A program made the translations under genes and the position numbers. A stretch of DNA of 64,000 nucleotides from NCBI GenBank assembly GCA_030649135.1, contig JAUSGI010000005.1, positions 1 to 64,000 on the forward strand, read 5' to 3'. This document shows positions 4,269 to 11,160 of this stretch, piece by piece; within the stretch, counting starts at the first letter, position 1; every line of letters begins with the position of its first letter. The notes beneath the pieces are model-generated. The model had not been told where the DNA came from and did not search any database. It was given only the letters and a program-made list of their open reading frames with translations. The stretch comes from a bacterium (GTDB taxonomy: Bacteria > Patescibacteriota > Minisyncoccia > Phycocordibacterales > Zambryskibacteraceae).

Positions 4269-5408
<1,140 letters not shown>

Positions 5409-5482
5409 GATGTGAATTGTTACGAATTAAACCGTATTAACGAGAGAGGTTCGCCTCGCGGCGAACCTCTCCGAATAACCTA

Positions 5483-5511
5483 TTACTCTCCTAGTATAAC
5501 AAATCCCTAAA
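5483..5511 (-). promoter_or_regulatory. candidate sigma70-type promoter for nusA (TTGCAA, 17 nt spacer, TATACT), followed by a leader hairpin at 5442-5472
   Basis: Read on the minus strand: TTGCAAaaaatttagggatttgtTATACT. The 5' UTR contains a perfect 12-bp stem (GAGAGGTTCGCC gcga GGCGAACCTCTC) about 30 nt upstream of the nusA ATG. Confidence 0.5.
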
Positions 5512-5564
5512 TTTTTTGCAAGCCTTCCTGTCAGAAATCTCCGGTACTGAAGAACTCTGACAGG

Positions 5565-5589
5565 AAGCCGACGTTGCATCGGCTTTTTG
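5565..5589 (+). terminator. plus-strand intrinsic-terminator-like hairpin (AAGCCGA cgttgca TCGGCTT TTTTGA)
   Basis: 7-bp GC-containing stem followed by a T5 run on the plus strand; no plus-strand gene ends here (see findings). Confidence 0.35.
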
Positions 5590-5692
5590 AGGATGGTGAT
5601 TCTCGGGAGTTGGAAGGTCTCCCACCCCTTCTGTTGCCAGGCCGTCCTCACGGCCCCGGTGACCCACGTGATAATCAGCGTATTGCTGCCGG

Positions 5693-6013
5693 CTAGGATG
5701 CCAGCGCAATCTCACTAATCTCAAGCCCCAGAAGATCCGAGAGGTAGGTGTCAACCTCCTCCGGCATCCTCTCCGGCTTGACCACGAGGATCAGGCTGGG
5801 CACCATACCCCTTTCCGGGATAGGAGCCTGCGCCATCACCCACTCGACCTTGGAATCCGACATGCGGTTTTCCACCGCAGCCAGACGCCCAAAGCAAGTG
5901 GTGCAGGCGCACCCCAACCACATCACCTCGAACGCGACGAGATTGCTCTCGACGCGACCGAAGCGAGGGTTGGACCAGCCGTCCACCCGCAGGCGAACGG
6001 TTCGGTTGGCCAT
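5693..6013 (-). CDS. hypothetical small protein with WLGCACTTC (CxCxxC) motif
   Basis: 106 aa from the ATG preceded by GGAGGTGaaatc. GC-rich codon usage, distinct from flanking genes. Possibly a thioredoxin-like or Fe-S-like small protein; not assignable. Confidence 0.45.
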   Translation of the reverse strand: MANRTVRLRVDGWSNPRFGRVESNLVAFEVMWLGCACTTCFGRLAAVENRMSDSKVEWVMAQAPIPERGMVPSLILVVKPERMPEEVDTYLSDLLGLEISEIALAS

Positions 6014-6262
6014 GATTTCACCTCCTTTCATGGCGAGTTATTCACCCGGATACCAACTGATAGCGCCTTCTCGCTAATCAGTCAGAAATCCAAGGCTACA
6101 TTAACGGCTAGGTCGCCCCAATCTTAAAAGAACAGCTGTTTCGCCCTTTTGGGCACATCAGTCGGGATACGCATCCCGAGACAGCAGGGACTAGTTGATA
6201 GTCCCTATGGCGGTTTCATCCGCCCCTCCTTATCCCCAACCTCCCCTGTGCGGGTGAGGATG

Positions 6263-6574
6263 TTACGGGGTCGAATCACCTTTCCCGGCATACTTACTCC
6301 GGTACTCAGCGATGAGCGCGTCCGCCTCCTCAGTCGAGGAGACGACCTGCCGGAGGCTAACCCTCCGGTTGAGCGTGCCGAACCGGCACGCCACGCGCGG
6401 ATTGGCAGCTTCGCCAATCCGAAGGACGAGCAGGTACCCGTCCTTCGTCTTGCGCAAGGAATGAGACATCTCCTCGTCGCAAAACTGGCGCACGACTACG
6501 CCGTCCGCGCTGGGAGCGGAATTGCACCCAGCGAAGAGCACGACCAGACAAAGAACAGCGGCAAACTTGATCAT
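6263..6574 (-). CDS. hypothetical lipoprotein
   Basis: 103 aa; signal peptide with lipobox (VVLFAGC); AGGAGaataagac ATG start; GC-rich. Confidence 0.5.
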   Translation of the reverse strand: MIKFAAVLCLVVLFAGCNSAPSADGVVVRQFCDEEMSHSLRKTKDGYLLVLRIGEAANPRVACRFGTLNRRVSLRQVVSSTEEADALIAEYRSKYAGKGDSTP

Positions 6575-6610
6575 GTCTTATTCTCCTGCGGCCTCGCCGC
6601 TTTCGAACAT

Positions 6611-6660
6611 TAAAGAACTTGAGCGAACCATTTCGCTCTTCTGAAAATCCAATTCCATTA
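6611..6660 (-). promoter_or_regulatory. copy 1 of a duplicated ~50-nt hairpin element located immediately 5' of the lipoprotein gene
   Basis: AAAGAACTTGAGCGAAccATTTCGCTCTTCTGAAaa... shares about 85 percent identity with 6985-7040. Forms a GAGCGAA/TTCGCTC stem extended by AGAA/TTCT. Confidence 0.5.
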
Positions 6661-6676
6661 GATTTTCGGAACAGCG

Positions 6677-6706
6677 GGCGAAGCATTGCACTTCGCCGGG
6701 TTTTTT
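6677..6706 (+). terminator. plus-strand intrinsic-terminator-like hairpin (GGCGAAG cattgca CTTCGCC GGG TTTTTT)
   Basis: Stem-loop followed by T6 on the plus strand, inside the GC-rich block. Confidence 0.35.
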
Positions 6707-6792
6707 AACGTGGTTCACTCCACGGAGCTGTGGTCTCGCCTCGGGATTATGATTTGCCCGAGATCCCCACTCATGTTTGCTCAGGCACCTTC

Positions 6793-6960
6793 GACTTACT
6801 TTCCAAAGCGATACAGCAGCTTTAGGAAGTAAGGAAAGGCCGCGAAGGACTGCGCACCTTTGAAGGCGAGGTTGCATCGCTTGCATACCATCACAAGCTG
6901 CCCGTCATCCGGGTCCTCGACCCCCTCAAGGAGTTTGTCCTTACACTCCGGACAGTCCGT
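6793..6960 (-). CDS. hypothetical 55-aa zinc-ribbon protein (CPEC...CKRC)
   Basis: MTDCPECKDKLLEGVEDPDDGQLVMVCKRCNLAF...; two CxxC pairs; preceded by GGAGGTGGTAAGAG. Below the 60-aa ORF-track cutoff; translated manually. Confidence 0.4.
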
Positions 6961-6984
6961 CATCTCTTACCACCTCCTTCTTCC

Positions 6985-7040
6985 AAAGAACTTGAGCGAA
7001 TTATTTCGCTCTTCTGAAGAACCAAATTTCAATTTTTAGT
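6985..7040 (-). promoter_or_regulatory. copy 2 of the duplicated ~50-nt hairpin element located immediately 5' of the zinc-ribbon gene
   Basis: CAAAGAACTTGAGCGAAttATTTCGCTCTTCTGAAgaaccAAATTTCAATT; same architecture as 6611-6660. Confidence 0.5.
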
Positions 7041-7498
7041 TCCTCGGAAGAGGGGGCTAGAGAAGTTCTCTCGCCCCGGCGTAGTCTGGAGTCCCGGTTT
7101 CCCTATGCCGGGTTATCTCCAGTTAAGGACCCACGCAAGGTCCCGCGCCACAGTCGAGGCTTCCCTCGAACGTCTGTGACGACTCGCCGCAACAACCATT
7201 GCGGCAGCAGGGGCTGAGATCATCAGCCAACCGCCTGCACGGCCGGTGGACTCTGGCGCGTTTTGGGGTACGCACCGCTCCACCATGGGAAGAACAAAAC
7301 CCTGTTTCATCCTTTCGGAATCATCAGCCCGGATACACATCCGGATACAGGAACCAGGGTTTAGCATTCCTGGTAGCGGCTCTGCTTCCGCGCGGCTCAC
7401 CACTCTAAGTAGGTGACACTTCTCTGTTTGTTATCGCGGGACAGAGAGCCGCGTATGCATTTTCTGTTCCCAGGACTGCGATAACACCCCGGCTAACC

Positions 7499-7669
7499 CT
7501 AAGTTAGCAGTACCCGGAGGGAGAAGATTACTTCCTTCTCCTCCAACGATCGGTCCGTCCTCCAGAAGGGAAAGAAATCGCTCGAAGCGACTCCCTCCTC
7601 TCGGATTTCGGACGACCGTCGGGGCTGTAGCCAGCCCGGGCGAGAATCATAGTGGCTTGCACCACCAGA
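7499..7669 (-). CDS. possible small basic ORF (56 aa, GTG start after GGAGGTGagtgagt)
   Basis: VEKGKKNLVVQATMILARAGYSPDGRPKSERRESLRA...; first ORF downstream of the minus-strand promoter at 7733-7761; weak evidence. Confidence 0.2.
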   Translation of the reverse strand, partial: SGGASHYDSRPGWLQPRRSSEIREEGVASSDFFPFWRTDRSLEEKEVIFSLRVLLT

Positions 7670-7732
7670 TTCTTCTTACCTTTTTCCACTCACTCACCTC
7701 CTTTCAGGGAACCTTGTCAGCGTCCGATTACA

Positions 7733-7761
7733 ATCTTACTCCATGTGATATTTATTGTCAA
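7733..7761 (-). promoter_or_regulatory. candidate sigma70 promoter reading into the GC-rich block (TTGACA, 17 nt spacer, TAAGAT)
   Basis: Minus-strand read TTGACAataaatatcacatggagTAAGAT within the AT-rich 7700-7950 hub. Confidence 0.45.
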
Positions 7762-7906
7762 CTCATTTTGACACTTTACTACAACTGGTCGTAAAAATAT
7801 GGCTAAATAAGACCATAGTTTGAAATATGAGTTTAATTTGGTCTGACTAAACTAGTATTTAAAGGGTTGATATTTTTGACCAATAATGGTGTTTAGTCAT
7901 TTACGT

Positions 7907-7935
7907 TTGACAAATAAAATTAGGGGGTATATACT
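7907..7935 (+). promoter_or_regulatory. candidate sigma70 promoter (TTGACA, 17 nt spacer, TATACT) with no protein gene downstream
   Basis: TTGACAaataaaattagggggtaTATACT. The next ~220 nt has no ORF over 22 codons and ends in the strong hairpin at 8131-8155. Confidence 0.5.
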
Positions 7936-8130
7936 GGTGACAGAAACTCCTCGAAAGGAGAGTGCATGAACGACTAGGGGATGGGGAAGTCCGGGGCGTA
8001 GCGCCCCGGACATGACCCAGAAATGCGGTTAACAGAAAAGGAGATTGGGATGGCCGACTGATGTCGTACCTAGGGTAGCTTCAAAAACCAGGAGGGGGTT
8101 ATGCTGTTAGCAATGACCCCACCCACAAAT

Positions 8131-8167
8131 GCCGTGGCGGCTTCACCGCCACGGCATCTTCATTTAT
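8131..8167. terminator. GC hairpin (GCCGTGGCGG cttca CCGCCACGGC) followed by a T-rich tract; terminator for the TrmB-like gene and/or the plus-strand transcript
   Basis: 10-bp perfect stem; flanked by T-rich sequence on the plus strand and lying just 3' of the minus-strand gene ending at 8160. Confidence 0.5.
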
Positions 8168-8900
8168 GATCAAAGATGTATTTGATAAGGCTTTTAAGAG
8201 TTTCTGCAAACTCCTGACTTTTTACAGATATTCCTGAAAGTCTTTTCCCGAGTATGGCTATTTTCACACGATCGCCATAAATCGTTATGTCACTTGTAAT
8301 CGGATACTTTTCATGATCTATTTTAATTCTTTCTCCAGTGCTATCAGACGGTTTATCGATAATTTTCGAGGTGTAAATTGATTTCGACCTGATTCCTCTG
8401 GAAATCCTTTCCTCTCGCATATTCGTCGTTTCTTTTTCAGTAAATAGATCTTTTACTAAATCTAGTGGATATACCATATAGACTGGTTCGTCATCGAGTT
8501 TTTTTACAAAAGTATCATCGTTGGAACTCAAGACCCCTTCCTTACCATCGAAAAACTGGACTATAGGTTTTCCTACTCGCTCTCCTTGGAGACCTCTCAA
8601 TTGGGGGATGATGATATCTAAGCTTTTTTTGTTTTCCTCTAGAAGGTGAATTTGTCTCTCAACAAAGAAACCGAGTTTCTCCGGTGGTTCGGCTAGGTAA
8701 TAAGTCTTTTTACCTATATTGGTCTCACTTACAAGACCCTTTTTAGCCAAAGAGTCGAGAATGACATAAGTTGTTGGTCTTTTAACTTTCGCTTTTTGTG
8801 AGATCTCTGATATTTGAGCCTTGTCGAAAGAGAGGAGGGCGACATAGACTGCCGCTTCCTTATCGCTCAATCCTATATCCCTGAGATATTTCTCGAACAT
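8160..8900 (-). CDS. TrmB-family HTH transcriptional regulator
   Basis: 246 aa; the N-terminal wHTH (DKEAAVYVALLSFDKAQISEISQKAKVKRPTTYVILDSLAKKGLV) matches the TrmB sugar-regulator family layout. Confidence 0.75.
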   Translation of the reverse strand: MFEKYLRDIGLSDKEAAVYVALLSFDKAQISEISQKAKVKRPTTYVILDSLAKKGLVSETNIGKKTYYLAEPPEKLGFFVERQIHLLEENKKSLDIIIPQLRGLQGERVGKPIVQFFDGKEGVLSSNDDTFVKKLDDEPVYMVYPLDLVKDLFTEKETTNMREERISRGIRSKSIYTSKIIDKPSDSTGERIKIDHEKYPITSDITIYGDRVKIAILGKRLSGISVKSQEFAETLKSLIKYIFDHK

Positions 8901-8933
8901 ATATTAAATGATAGCATGACAGAAACTCTGCTG

Positions 8934-9872
8934 TTACTTCCTCCTTGAATGAAACCTTTTGTGGGTATCGCGAAGCGCCTTGTCGGTGACGTGGGTATAT
9001 ATTTGAGTTGTCGAAATATTGGCGTGGCCGAGAAGCATTTGGACGCTACGAAGGTCGGCGCCATTGCTTAAAAGATCAGTAGCAAAGCTGTGACGAATAA
9101 CGTGAGGTGTCACTTTTTTTGAAATGCCGGCTTTTATCGCATAATGCTTCACAATTCTTTCTATCGAGCGGCGAGTGAGAGGAAGGGAGTCTTTGGTTTT
9201 AGTGTTTTTCCCTACCTGAACAAAGAGGGCATCATTCATATCCTTGCGAGCTTTGAGATATTTGGATACGGCGTTTCTCGCTTCATCAGAAACAAAGACT
9301 ACCCGCACCTTACTGCCTTTACCCCTGATAGAAAACTCCCCGACAGAAAGATCAGTATCATTATTTAACGAGCAGAGTTCGGATACACGAAGCCCTGTGG
9401 AGAAAAGCATTTCAAGGATAGCTTTGTCGCGAAGTTCTTTAATTCCATCGCCTTTGGGCATCTCAAGTAGGCGAGTGAGTTCGGCAGGGGAGATGAGATC
9501 AAGAGAGCGTTCTCCAACTTTAGCCAGTTCAATGCGTTCTGCTGGCAGACTTGTAATTTCTTGCCGAGCCAGATACTTGAGAAAAGAGCGTAAGGCAATC
9601 AGATAATAATTCTGCGTCTTCTTCGACATGGTTTCACCGGTTTGTCGGTTATTGCCGGTCGACTGGCGGTTAAGCCACATCCTAAATTCTCTCACCACTT
9701 CGTCACTAATATCCTTCGGATTTTTTACTTCGGTATGCTTAAGAAAAACGGAAAGGTAGTGGTCATAGTTCTCAATAGTCTTGAGTGCCCGGCCCTTTTC
9801 GATCTCGGTATATTCCAGAAATCCTCTCTTTAATCGCTCTAGTTCACTAACATTCCCCATATTGTGCGACAT
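8934..9872 (-). CDS. xerD: tyrosine site-specific recombinase (XerC/XerD / phage-integrase family)
   Basis: 312 aa; C-terminal catalytic box HVIRHSFATDLLSNGADLRSVQMLLGHANISTTQIYTHV (R..HxxR..Y). Confidence 0.88.
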   Translation of the reverse strand: MSHNMGNVSELERLKRGFLEYTEIEKGRALKTIENYDHYLSVFLKHTEVKNPKDISDEVVREFRMWLNRQSTGNNRQTGETMSKKTQNYYLIALRSFLKYLARQEITSLPAERIELAKVGERSLDLISPAELTRLLEMPKGDGIKELRDKAILEMLFSTGLRVSELCSLNNDTDLSVGEFSIRGKGSKVRVVFVSDEARNAVSKYLKARKDMNDALFVQVGKNTKTKDSLPLTRRSIERIVKHYAIKAGISKKVTPHVIRHSFATDLLSNGADLRSVQMLLGHANISTTQIYTHVTDKALRDTHKRFHSRRK

Positions 9873-9951
9873 TATAACACGGACGCATTTGACTTGATTT
9901 TCTGTTCAAATAGTTATAGGTTTCTTAGCAGAATTGAGCACAGACAGGAGA

Positions 9952-10215
9952 ATGGCCATGCGATCAGTCACGATAACATTCACGGAAGAGCTCCAGGATG
10001 TCGAGAGCGGCGTGACTCCGGGTGGAGCGATCTTTCTCCACAGCATGATTATGGCGATTAACCGCTTCACGAATACGCTTGAGGTTACCGCACCGCATGA
10101 GATCAAGGTAACCGCCGAACTCATTGGGCTCAAATACGAGGACGGCGCAGACGAGGATGCATTCTCGGTCATTGTGCACAGATCCAAGGTCAGCAAGATG
10201 ACCATCGAGTTTTAG
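9952..10215 (+). CDS. hypothetical protein (GC-rich cassette gene)
   Basis: About 86 aa. AGGAG precedes ATGgccATG; the true start is 9952 or 9958. Followed by a strong terminator. Compositionally unlike its neighbours. Confidence 0.5.
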   Translation: MAMRSVTITFTEELQDVESGVTPGGAIFLHSMIMAINRFTNTLEVTAPHEIKVTAELIGLKYEDGADEDAFSVIVHRSKVSKMTIEF

Positions 10216-10244
10216 TAACTACCTTTCGAACAGTATCAGGGGTA

Positions 10245-10278
10245 GGGCCGCGACGTCGTCGCGGCCCTCTTTTCATTT
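10245..10278 (+). terminator. intrinsic terminator (GGGCCGCGACG tcg TCGCGGCCC + TCTTTTCATTT)
   Basis: 11-bp GC stem followed by a T-rich run. Confidence 0.7.
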
Positions 10279-10326
10279 ACCTTTTAGTGTGTTGCAAAAT
10301 ATGAGTGCATATGCTATACTTGGAAA

Positions 10327-10593
10327 GTGATTTCAAAGACCAGAAAACTTAAGCTCATCAAGGAAGTAGCCATCCACGAAAAGGATACGGGCTCTCCTGA
10401 AGTGCAAATTTCCATACTGACAAAGCGTATCGAGGATTTAGCCAAACATCTCAAAACGCATGCCAAGGACAATCACTCGCGTCGCGGGCTTCTCGCCATG
10501 GTGGCGGGGCGCCAGGCGCATATGAAATATTTGGAAAAGAAAAGTCCGAAACGCGCCAGAGCTTTAGAAAAGAAACTTGGTCTGAAGAAATAA
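10327..10593 (+). CDS. rpsO: 30S ribosomal protein S15
   Basis: 88 aa; HEKDTGSPEVQISILTKRIEDLAKHLKTHAKDNHSRRGLL is the S15 signature. Confidence 0.9.
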   Translation: MISKTRKLKLIKEVAIHEKDTGSPEVQISILTKRIEDLAKHLKTHAKDNHSRRGLLAMVAGRQAHMKYLEKKSPKRARALEKKLGLKK

Positions 10594-10617: not shown

Positions 10618-11160
10618 ATGACAGTAATAAAACATAAAGCCCAGCGGGTCGGCATTTTCATAGACACGCAAAACATTTATCACAGCGCCAAAAATATTCA
10701 CCACGCCAAAGCAAATTTTGGCGCGATAGTGAAGGACGTACTCGATGGACGGGTGCTCATCCGCGCTTTAGCCTACGTGGTCACTACCGAATCCGGCGAA
10801 GAAAACGCCTTCTTCGGCGCGCTAGAAAAAGCGGGTATCGAAATACGTTCGAAACCATTGCAAATATTTCTCGGTGGAGCCAAGAAAGCGGACTGGGATG
10901 TCGGATTGGCAATTGATGCCGTCACTATGGCACCCAAACTCGACAGCATCATCCTCTTGTCCGGCGATGGAGACTATGTGCCTTTGGTAGAATACATTCA
11001 AAACACCCATGGTTGCCAGGTAGAGGTAGTGGCCTTCGGCAAATCATCTTCGGCGCGTCTGATTGAAGCGGCCGATGACTTTATCGACCTCGACCAGAAT
11101 CCTAAAAAATATCTTCTCAACACCAACAACATAAAACTTCGTGAAGGAGGCGTCAGATAG
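10618..11160 (+). CDS. NYN-domain (LabA-like / DUF88) protein, putative RNase
   Basis: 180 aa; VGIFIDTQNIYH...ILLSGDGDYVPLVEY matches the PIN-like NYN fold. Confidence 0.75.
   Translation: MTVIKHKAQRVGIFIDTQNIYHSAKNIHHAKANFGAIVKDVLDGRVLIRALAYVVTTESGEENAFFGALEKAGIEIRSKPLQIFLGGAKKADWDVGLAIDAVTMAPKLDSIILLSGDGDYVPLVEYIQNTHGCQVEVVAFGKSSSARLIEAADDFIDLDQNPKKYLLNTNNIKLREGGVR

Follow-up and report, generated by a model that had tools for sequence, protein, structure and literature searches.

A TrmB-family regulator gene and a hammerhead-containing small-protein operon form an accessory module beside the core xer gene of a Zambryskibacteria-like genome

We analysed the span between the nusA and rpsO genes (positions 5409 to 10278) in a 64-kb stretch of DNA, hereafter the window, from a Zambryskibacteria-like Paceibacteria genome of the candidate phyla radiation (CPR). 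A first-pass annotation had described this span as a possible integrated island made of a G+C-rich block, a TrmB-like regulator, a tyrosine recombinase and an orphan gene. The span is three things and not one island: a core xer gene, a 3.4-kb module that joins the regulator gene to a ribozyme-containing operon, and a separate ORFan. The explanation that we favour, with a probability of about 70%, is that a TrmBL2-like regulator controls a relocating, RNA-rich operon of small proteins whose transcript is processed by hammerhead ribozymes, and that this module lies beside the core xer gene. Genes were identified from Pfam domain matches and translation, promoters and terminators from sequence scans, and RNA elements with Rfam models; related loci that were fetched for comparison carry L-numbers (L056, L090 and so on). 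Each feature listed by the first-pass annotation was recovered in its place by open reading frame (ORF), Pfam and promoter/terminator scans.

The limits of the module are defined by comparison with related genomes. In L056 and L057 (Zambryskibacteria) and in L064, the genomes whose flanking genes come closest to those of the window, the gene order is nusA-xer-rpsO without the module, and the gaps are only ~65-200 nt. The nusA promoter starts 0-20 nt past the xer stop codon in L057, L090 and L064. In the window this stop codon is at 8934-8936 and homology to the relatives resumes at 5521. Because the nusA promoter directly trails the xer stop codon in those three genomes, the insert can be placed at about 5522-8933. 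Orthologues of nusA are 81-87% identical in L047, L056, L057, L064 and L090. The insert and its neighbours on this side are as follows.

4269-5408, minus strand: nusA, the native flank (Pfam NusA_N, S1 and KH_5)
5493-5521, minus strand: nusA promoter TTGCAA-17-TATACT (promoter scan and homology), the native boundary of the insert
about 5522-8933, minus strand: inserted module of 3.4 kb, absent between xer and nusA in L056, L057, L064 and L090
8934-9872, minus strand: gene of a core chromosomal Xer-type tyrosine recombinase (Pfam, NCBIfam, conservation and synteny)

The composition of the insert also sets it apart. The odd block at 5409-7700 is a 2.3-kb stretch without a long ORF, and its predicted transcript (5525-7735) has 56.1% G+C against 46.8% for the window; on the left side the contrast is modest, nusA itself having 54%. 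The description of the accessory DNA as G+C-rich is correct for the block and for the orphan gene, but not for trmB, which has 38% G+C. G+C at third codon positions (GC3) is 0.57-0.78 in the four block ORFs (0.70-0.78 when the first of them, o53, is excluded) and 0.68 in the orphan, against 0.36-0.64 in native genes. The insert thus combines presence/absence polymorphism with atypical composition.

The recombinase is not part of the insert, because it is present and syntenic with rpsO in genomes that have no module. It contains a Phage_integrase domain (147.7 bits) and an N-terminal SAM-like Phage_int_SAM_1 domain in Pfam, passes the NCBIfam single-Xer model XerA_Arch (234.9 bits, cut-off 220), and scores under the cut-offs of the XerD and XerC equivalog models. 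Scanning one genome per species gave 593 related loci, and the best 80, which are 63-74% identical and all from Paceibacteria/Parcubacteria-type CPR bacteria, were used for the synteny counts. An xer gene is found in 80 of these 80 loci, most of them without the module; the S15 gene is present in 77 and lies divergent from xer within 1 kb in 66. A second Xer copy was not found in a search that covered the 64-kb window, and a look-up of the exact protein sequence returned no record. These comparisons identify the recombinase as a vertically inherited housekeeping Xer whose ancestral neighbours were presumably nusA and rpsO. That it might be the chromosomal Xer had been offered as the alternative in the first-pass annotation, and conservation, rpsO synteny and the XerA model score all favour it.

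Several observations would fit the insertion of the whole 5409-10278 span between nusA and rpsO as a single island by its own recombinase. A tyrosine recombinase adjoins accessory genes of high GC3, bacterial hammerheads often occur near integrases (PMC3088659), and the trmB gene, the block and the orphan are all missing at this locus in relatives. However, module-free relatives retain xer between nusA and rpsO, which agrees in part with the refuting condition named in the first-pass annotation, although the intervening genes are lacking there; the protein is also Xer-like by NCBIfam. In the nearest relative the module is on the other side of xer, and in no genome is the orphan linked to the module. 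Attachment (att)-like direct repeats were found neither near 5409 and 10278, where they had been expected for an island, nor at the true ends of the insert. A repeat search over 5300-10400 and a comparison of the junctions with those of L057, L090 and L064 revealed no direct repeats or target duplication at the insert ends, only short repeats at chance level, among them one 6-mer and a degenerate 12-mer at these ends. Accessory DNA that is missing from related genomes is what survives of the island proposal; the recombinase falls outside it, and we give the single-island explanation next to no credence. Within the span there are no tRNA matches and no Rfam matches at gathering level, the four tRNAs of the window all lying beyond 51 kb. 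The two arms of a 40-nt inverted repeat (5482-5521 and 10292-10331) are simply the nusA and rpsO promoters, and a replication origin or terminus as the reason for the site was dropped because window-scale skew is too weak.

The same module is found at other chromosomal sites in L053/L094, L081, L083, L084, L086/L090 and L102-104. Its pattern is a 246-aa TrmB-like gene, then ~1.2 kb without called genes on the same strand, and then small ORFs without Pfam matches. The flanking genes differ among the contexts examined (L081, L083 and L084), and in L084 the module is inverted and adjoins clpP. In the nearest relative, L090/L086 (nusA 87% and xer 83-89% identical to the window), the order is nusA-xer-[block-trmB]-rpsO, so that the module is on the opposite side of xer. 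It abuts xer in the window, in L090/L086 and in L077, where it lies downstream of xer. The order of cassettes within the module also varies among relatives, and the o106 cassette with its untranslated regions (5581-6118 in the window) holds a different rank in L090.

The module, which has no recombinase of its own, might be moved by the host Xer at a dif-like site in or near it, in the manner of integrative mobile elements exploiting Xer (IMEX); this would account for its adjoining xer on opposite sides in two close relatives and for its place downstream of the gene in L077. A long palindromic hairpin at the distal end (5524-5567) and a related 12-mer, GAGTTTCTGTCA, at the xer-proximal junction could be taken as the sites. 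IMEX elements, however, integrate at dif and not beside the xer gene, and dif spacers are 6-8 nt long, against 19-20 nt between the arms of the distal hairpin. Furthermore, in L081, L083, L053 and L102 the module sits at a distance from xer or has unrelated surroundings, the window shows no excess of the 12-mer (TGACAGAAACTC) when two mismatches are allowed, and elsewhere unrelated genes also gather in the xer-rpsO spacer. Movement by Xer is, in our judgement, very unlikely. Like genomic islands and IMEX, the module shows presence/absence polymorphism, atypical composition and an adjacent tyrosine recombinase gene; it differs from them in having no element integrase, att repeats, tRNA target or dif-like site, and in that the recombinase is conserved independently. 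The neighbourhood of xer is better described as a variable spot than as a specific site of attachment.

A larger block and a second layout were also seen. The block equivalent to that of the window measures ~6 kb in a Zambryskibacteria contig (L081, 9663-13691) and has 47-61% G+C between flanks of 29-38%; it additionally contains two CheY-like small proteins (recognised by eye, with no Pfam or PHROG match) and one ParB-like/HTH_psq protein, which suggests that modules can carry larger foreign cargo. In the second layout the TrmB-like gene is more distant (24-33% identical) and is oriented divergently to a G+C-rich, hammerhead-containing block of small genes (L051 5750-7986, L053 13476-15300, L065 18879-20993, L077 4701-6700 and L036 17641-19600), often at the xth...cca locus.

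The operon occupies 2.2 kb of the minus strand, from its promoter down to hairpins at 5590-5524, and contains four tiny ORFs that make up 44% of its length. Its promoters, Shine-Dalgarno (SD) sequences and terminators are intact. In the direction of transcription its features are the following.

7756-7773, minus strand: perfect palindrome TGTCAA-N6-TTGACA, over the operon -35 box
7733-7761, minus strand: operon promoter TTGACA-17-TAAGAT (promoter scan, 10/12)
7528-7689, minus strand: o53, the first small ORF, with a GTG start and a strong SD (translation)
7416-7513, minus strand: M45, a conserved RNA motif of ~100 nt (model R2 and covariation; no Rfam match)
7297-7356, minus strand: type III hammerhead, copy 2 (Rfam Hammerhead_3, model R1, minimum free energy (MFE) fold)
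6985-7025, minus strand: 41-nt repeat, copy 2, a hairpin plus AAGUUCUUU, upstream of the zn55 SD
6796-6963, minus strand: zn55, a 55-aa zinc-ribbon-like ORF (CxxC...CxxC) with a strong SD (translation)
6612-6652, minus strand: 41-nt repeat, copy 1, a hairpin plus AAGUUCUUU, just upstream of the lipo103 SD
6263-6574, minus strand: lipo103, a predicted lipoprotein with a signal peptide and an LFAGC lipobox (translation)
6131-6190, minus strand: type III hammerhead, copy 1 (Rfam Hammerhead_3, model R1, MFE fold)
5693-6013, minus strand: o106, 106 aa with three invariant Cys, the most widely common gene of the modules
5524-5590, minus strand: operon 3'-terminal hairpins (MFE -26.9 kcal/mol, z = -6.6)

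The two hammerheads were recognised by Rfam Hammerhead_3 (RF00008), copy 1 at 6187-6133 with 42.7 bits (E 2.7e-7) and copy 2 at 7353-7299 with 30.7 bits (E 6.5e-5). With R1, a covariance model built from six copies, they score 78.8 and 76.5 bits, and this model found 24 distinct hammerhead copies in the window and the related loci. In the alignment of the 24 copies 96.3% of cells are paired and 11 of 16 pairs show compensatory changes, the covariation being 0.612 against at most 0.11 for slid-partner controls. The MFE folds of both window copies are three-way junctions with the open end in stem III, as in type III hammerheads. Cleavage is predicted after C6180 in copy 1 (6180|6179; GUC site, GAAA intact) and after A7346 in copy 2 (7346|7345; GUA site, core intact), and these cuts would release a 1,166-nt RNA containing zn55 and lipo103.

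Conservation supports the small proteins as real. The o106 family comprises 19 clusters at 62-86% identity, all named sources being of the Paceibacteria group, and o106 again trails TrmB in Giovannonibacteria-type contigs; the predicted fold is confident (predicted local distance difference test, pLDDT, 91.8) and has no clear relative in the PDB. Homologues of lipo103, 30-46% identical, are found within the equivalent blocks of L053/L094, L083 and L088/L093. The o53 product is 57.5% identical over 40 aa to that of an ORF at the equivalent place in L083, and its codon-position G+C is not clearly coding-like. That of zn55 is coding-like; this protein has weak matches to Pfam Trm112p and Zn_Ribbon (E ~1e-3) and no homologue in the fetched loci. 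Two G+C-rich spacers on the minus strand, 7296-6964 (333 nt) and 6795-6575 (221 nt), contain no ORF, match nothing in Rfam and lack homologues in the fetched loci.

M45 lies 60 nt upstream of hammerhead copy 2. It consists of a variable covarying hairpin, a near-invariant segment of 45 nt, AAAUGCRUAC with a second covarying hairpin, and an A-rich strand. The invariant segment forms a 9-bp hairpin that is preserved through compensatory changes in the divergent copy of L087, and the core (7493-7449, 45 nt) is 98% identical to that of L053, whose TrmB is only 49% identical. The R2 model yielded 12 distinct copies with 90% of cells paired and compensatory changes in 10 of 18 pairs; covariation amounts to 0.314, where slid partners give no more than 0.075, in an alignment that was fitted to the model and so favours it. 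A hammerhead follows within ~60-110 nt in 8 of the 12 copies, and M45 also occurs without one. The MFE fold of the window copy has a different, window-specific pairing. A 22-mer of the core was found in 17 stretches in a metagenome scan and in none of the viral contigs. When M45 and the spacers were compared with Rfam, only chance-level matches were obtained and no ribozyme family was hit. The copies located in relatives are these.

L053, 2177-2272: M45
L081, 8708-8802 and 9440-9539: M45, two copies
L084, 6037-6132: M45
L086, 4734-4829: M45
L087, 5862-5956 and 5477-5566: M45, two copies

Other RNA elements accompany the two motifs. The copies of the 41-nt repeat are 90% identical, where none would be expected by chance, and appear terminator-like in the scan; they could be attenuators, processing sites or translation elements. 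An element related to this repeat, with a covarying stem, occurs at ~5800-5760 (minus strand) of L087. The 3'-terminal hairpins include a long hairpin of the form CAGAG...UUUCUG (5567-5524; z = -6.6), and related 3' hairpins with covarying lower stems are present in L084, L087, L090 and L102. Two leader motifs with apparent covariation, GCUUCCACUUGGxGxCCUGGAUCGCACAAAUxAAUUGCGAGAGGCC and CAGUUCUGGUUAGCGA..GGCAACCGUCCAGAUAAUUAUCACGGACCC, were seen after the operon promoter in L090 (~8260-8150), L094 and L093 and in the leaders of L081, L083, L084 and L098; both are absent from the window.

Upstream of the operon is the AT-rich promoter hub that had been noted between block and trmB, and it indeed contains two strong back-to-back sigma-70-like promoters. 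One is the operon promoter; the other directs a short RNA towards the 3' end of the regulator gene. The TrmB family of this gene, like the recombinase family of its neighbour, was borne out by Pfam.

7907-7935, plus strand: promoter of the convergent RNA, TTGACA-17-TATACT (promoter scan, 11/12)
7937-8160, plus strand: convergent RNA of ~225 nt, ending at a terminator common with trmB (sequence)
7966-7977, plus strand: mini-ORF MND-stop, three codons with an SD ahead
8050-8061, plus strand: mini-ORF MAD-stop, three codons with an SD ahead
8129-8157, bidirectional: terminator common to trmB and the convergent RNA, 12-bp stem, kept in relatives
8160-8900, minus strand: TrmB-family (TrmBL2-like) winged-helix regulator, 246 aa (Pfam TrmB PF01978)
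8908-8937, minus strand: possible trmB promoter with extended -10 TGCTATCAT (promoter scan, 9/12 with TG)

The regulator matches Pfam TrmB with 57 bits (cut-off 25.6), and about 70 protein clusters are 62-82% identical to it. Its AlphaFold2 model (pLDDT 90) has the complete architecture of a winged helix-turn-helix, a coiled coil and a C-terminal domain. The best PDB matches in Foldseek are full-length TrmBL2 proteins (E 2.6e-12, 261-270 columns), with a template modelling (TM) score of only 0.38, which is low because the domain orientations differ. Archaeal TrmBL2, a chromatin protein and global repressor (PDB 5bpd and 5box), is similar in length (~264 against 246 aa) and likewise has an N-terminal winged helix, a long coiled-coil helix and a C-terminal alpha/beta domain. 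In contrast, the window protein is bacterial, is 21% identical to TrmBL2, reaches 23.7 bits against a cut-off of 530 in the NCBIfam TrmBL2 model, and would be dedicated to one adjacent locus. In NCBIfam it scores 19.6-23.7 bits across the equivalog models for TrmB, TrmBL1 and TrmBL2, whose cut-offs are 530-650, so that it belongs to none of them at that level. The putative trmB promoter shares nucleotides with the xer stop codon and lies 7 nt ahead of the trmB ATG, and in relatives TGATATAAT is found ~10 nt ahead of this ATG, which suggests that trmB mRNA may be leaderless or near-leaderless.

The palindrome over the operon -35 box is a candidate operator of the TrmB-like protein. Together with the operon promoter it is kept in seven related loci (L081, L083, L084, L086, L093, L094 and L098), and further TTGAC(A/C) boxes occur near the opposite promoter. 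The -10 box of the window operon, TAAGAT, is weaker than those of its relatives. The promoter of the convergent RNA is nearly identical in L053, L081, L083, L084, L086 and L098.

The convergent RNA has no Rfam match and is marked by its two mini-ORFs. In an SD-anchored scan, ORFs of the form M-x-D-stop were found in 8 of 10 modules (not in L102 and L103), with 14 observed across modules against 0.023 expected; the Asp is invariant, while the second codon and the stop are variable. A covarying G+C-rich hairpin sits between the two mini-ORFs. The GAC-stop nucleotides are also able to pair with a covarying, CUAGUC-like downstream segment, so that structure would be an alternative to translation. 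Phage lambda 'bar' minigenes, regulatory mini-ORFs and leader peptides are likewise very short ORFs with strong SDs and a fixed last sense codon, placed in a non-coding transcript. The mini-ORFs of the window differ from these in having three codons, an invariant Asp before the stop, a tandem arrangement, and an RNA convergent with a regulator gene.

Taken together, these elements suggest how the module may work. The regulator would most likely repress the back-to-back promoters by binding the TGTCAA-N6-TTGACA palindrome. When active, one promoter would drive the ~225-nt mini-ORF RNA toward the 3' end of trmB, and the other the 2.2-kb operon of o53, the zinc-ribbon ORF, the lipoprotein and o106. 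The two hammerheads, if active in vivo, would split the operon transcript into three RNAs: a first with o53, ending in the M45 structure; a second of 1,166 nt with zn55 and lipo103; and a third with o106 and a 5'-OH end. By analogy with other hammerhead-flanked genes, cleavage would uncouple the stability and translation of the cassettes. The module itself has probably moved between chromosomal sites.

Some of our results weigh against this explanation. Both hammerheads are under the Rfam gathering score of 48.5 bits. The core of copy 1 is CUGAUGU, with A9 changed to U, a variant unique among the 24 copies, and copy 2 has a U.U mismatch at 10.1/11.1. The U.U variant recurs in L095, and A.A is found at this position in L051 and L083; Perreault et al. 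excluded such mispairs unless activity had been shown (PMC3088659). One or both window hammerheads may be slow or dead because their near-core deviations are of this class. Modules of L081, L084 and L102-104 have no hammerheads, no M45 or neither, so that RNA processing is not essential to the module. Non-coding sequence makes up 56% of the operon, most of it without explanation. The operator assignment is drawn from the palindrome and from nothing else, and the description of the module as mobile is a matter of positional variability only, since there is no mobility gene, terminal repeat or target duplication in it.

Some of these points could be read to mean that the G+C-rich block is mostly non-functional, a pseudogenised or junk region whose ORFs arose by chance and whose ribozymes are fossils. 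Coding sequence makes up only 44% of it, both hammerheads deviate near the core, zn55 and the two long spacers have no homologues, and the operon -10 box is weaker than in relatives. However, o106 is kept at 62-86% identity over 19 clusters with a confident fold, compensatory changes preserve the hammerhead and M45 helices, and promoters, SDs and terminators are intact; a block of this kind seems to us scarcely credible. More weight attaches to the possibility of a decayed prophage or satellite, in which case the hammerheads and small ORFs would be left over from the early operon of a phage, and the TrmB-like protein would have been its repressor. Hammerhead clusters are a typical feature of prophages (PMC3088659), the ParB-like protein of the larger L081 block matches phage families, G+C and GC3 are unlike those of host genes, and a repressor beside divergent promoters would resemble a phage immunity region. 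On the other hand, the five small proteins of the window have no PHROG match, and a search of 2.9 million IMG/VR viral contigs yielded neither the o106 family nor this TrmB subfamily nor M45; a sole viral match of o106 (L105) was discarded, as it covers 11 residues. The conservation of TrmB, o106 and the RNA motifs argues for selection and not decay, and we consider a prophage remnant unlikely.

A regulated operon processed by hammerheads, our preferred reading, has a precedent. Bacteria are known in which several hammerheads bracket one gene or a short run of genes, and these ribozymes cut polycistronic RNA in vitro; in one instance a marR-type regulator and an integrase lie close by (PMC3088659). 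The clustered hammerheads described by Perreault et al. in 2011 (PMC3088659) share with those of the window that several lie on one strand of a polycistronic unit, bracketing variable small genes, that a winged-helix regulator and a tyrosine recombinase are nearby, and that gene-length RNAs are expected. Here, in contrast, the host is a CPR bacterium, phage genes and matches in viral contigs are absent, the recombinase next door is the core Xer, both copies deviate near the core, and the ribozymes are part of a fixed module that also comprises a TrmBL2-like regulator, a mini-ORF RNA and M45. Searchable literature contained nothing relevant on hammerheads in CPR bacteria or with TrmB. While hammerheads flanking small genes were already known, the CPR host, the linkage to TrmB and the accompanying RNA motifs appear to be new.

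M45 may be compared with RNAs that have been found close to ribozymes. Twister-sister, pistol and hatchet are said to have been discovered through the neighbourhoods of self-cleaving ribozymes, by Weinberg et al. in 2015. M45 is likewise structured, highly conserved and no more than ~100 nt from a hammerhead in 8 of 12 copies, and it matches no ribozyme family in Rfam. A more ambitious proposal, which as a whole we regard as quite improbable, is that the module represents an RNA-centred accessory system of CPR bacteria that has not been described before. In such a system M45 could be a new functional RNA class coupled to hammerheads; by gating ribozyme cleavage in response to a ligand or protein it could make a natural allosteric hammerhead, or it could represent a further self-cleaving class. 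Translated M-x-Asp-stop mini-ORFs would be a sensor controlling antisense read-through into the regulator gene, and the shuffling of cassettes would reflect a dedicated, possibly RNA-level, exchange mechanism.

It is tempting to annotate odd DNA with an adjacent recombinase as an island, and these results correct such a mis-annotation: here the gene is the housekeeping Xer of a CPR lineage. They place hammerheads in the small genome of a host-dependent member of the Patescibacteria, within a conserved, regulator-linked module and with no recognisable prophage. If the ribozymes are active, the module would be a compact natural case in which small secreted or membrane proteins are expressed under a regulator and from ribozyme-processed RNA, and these proteins are candidates for the symbiont-host interface. 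The RNA features without an Rfam match (M45, the M-x-D mini-ORF RNA, and the leader and hairpin motifs) are short enough for direct biochemistry, and o106 defines a Cys-rich protein family with a confident fold and no clear structural relative.

The remaining part of the span, on the rpsO side of xer, contains the orphan gene, which was confirmed as terminator-capped, with an SD and a coding-like composition.

9952-10215, plus strand: ORFan of 87 aa with its own SD (SD and codon-position G+C)
10244-10268, plus strand: ORFan intrinsic terminator (11-bp stem with 9 G-C pairs, T-tract)
10292-10320, plus strand: rpsO promoter, native (promoter scan)
10327-10593, plus strand: rpsO (S15; Pfam)

The codon-position G+C of the ORFan (0.52/0.36/0.68) is typical of coding sequence. 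Among 5.8 billion proteins the only match was the protein itself; none was found in the fetched loci, nor any in Pfam, PHROG or NCBIfam. The xer-rpsO spacer is 200 nt or less in 48 of the 77 loci with an S15 gene, with a median gap of 139 nt, against 455 nt in the window. The ORFan is a separate, lineage-specific insertion in this spacer, unrelated to the module. In ~11 of the 77 genomes the same spacer contains 1-4.3 kb of unrelated accessory genes (among them L009, L033, L045, L054, L063 and L068); by eye the products include long secreted-type proteins and a membrane protein. Beyond rpsO, a gene with a NYN domain (LabA-like; 10618-11160, plus strand) follows directly, as it does in 76 of the 80 related loci.

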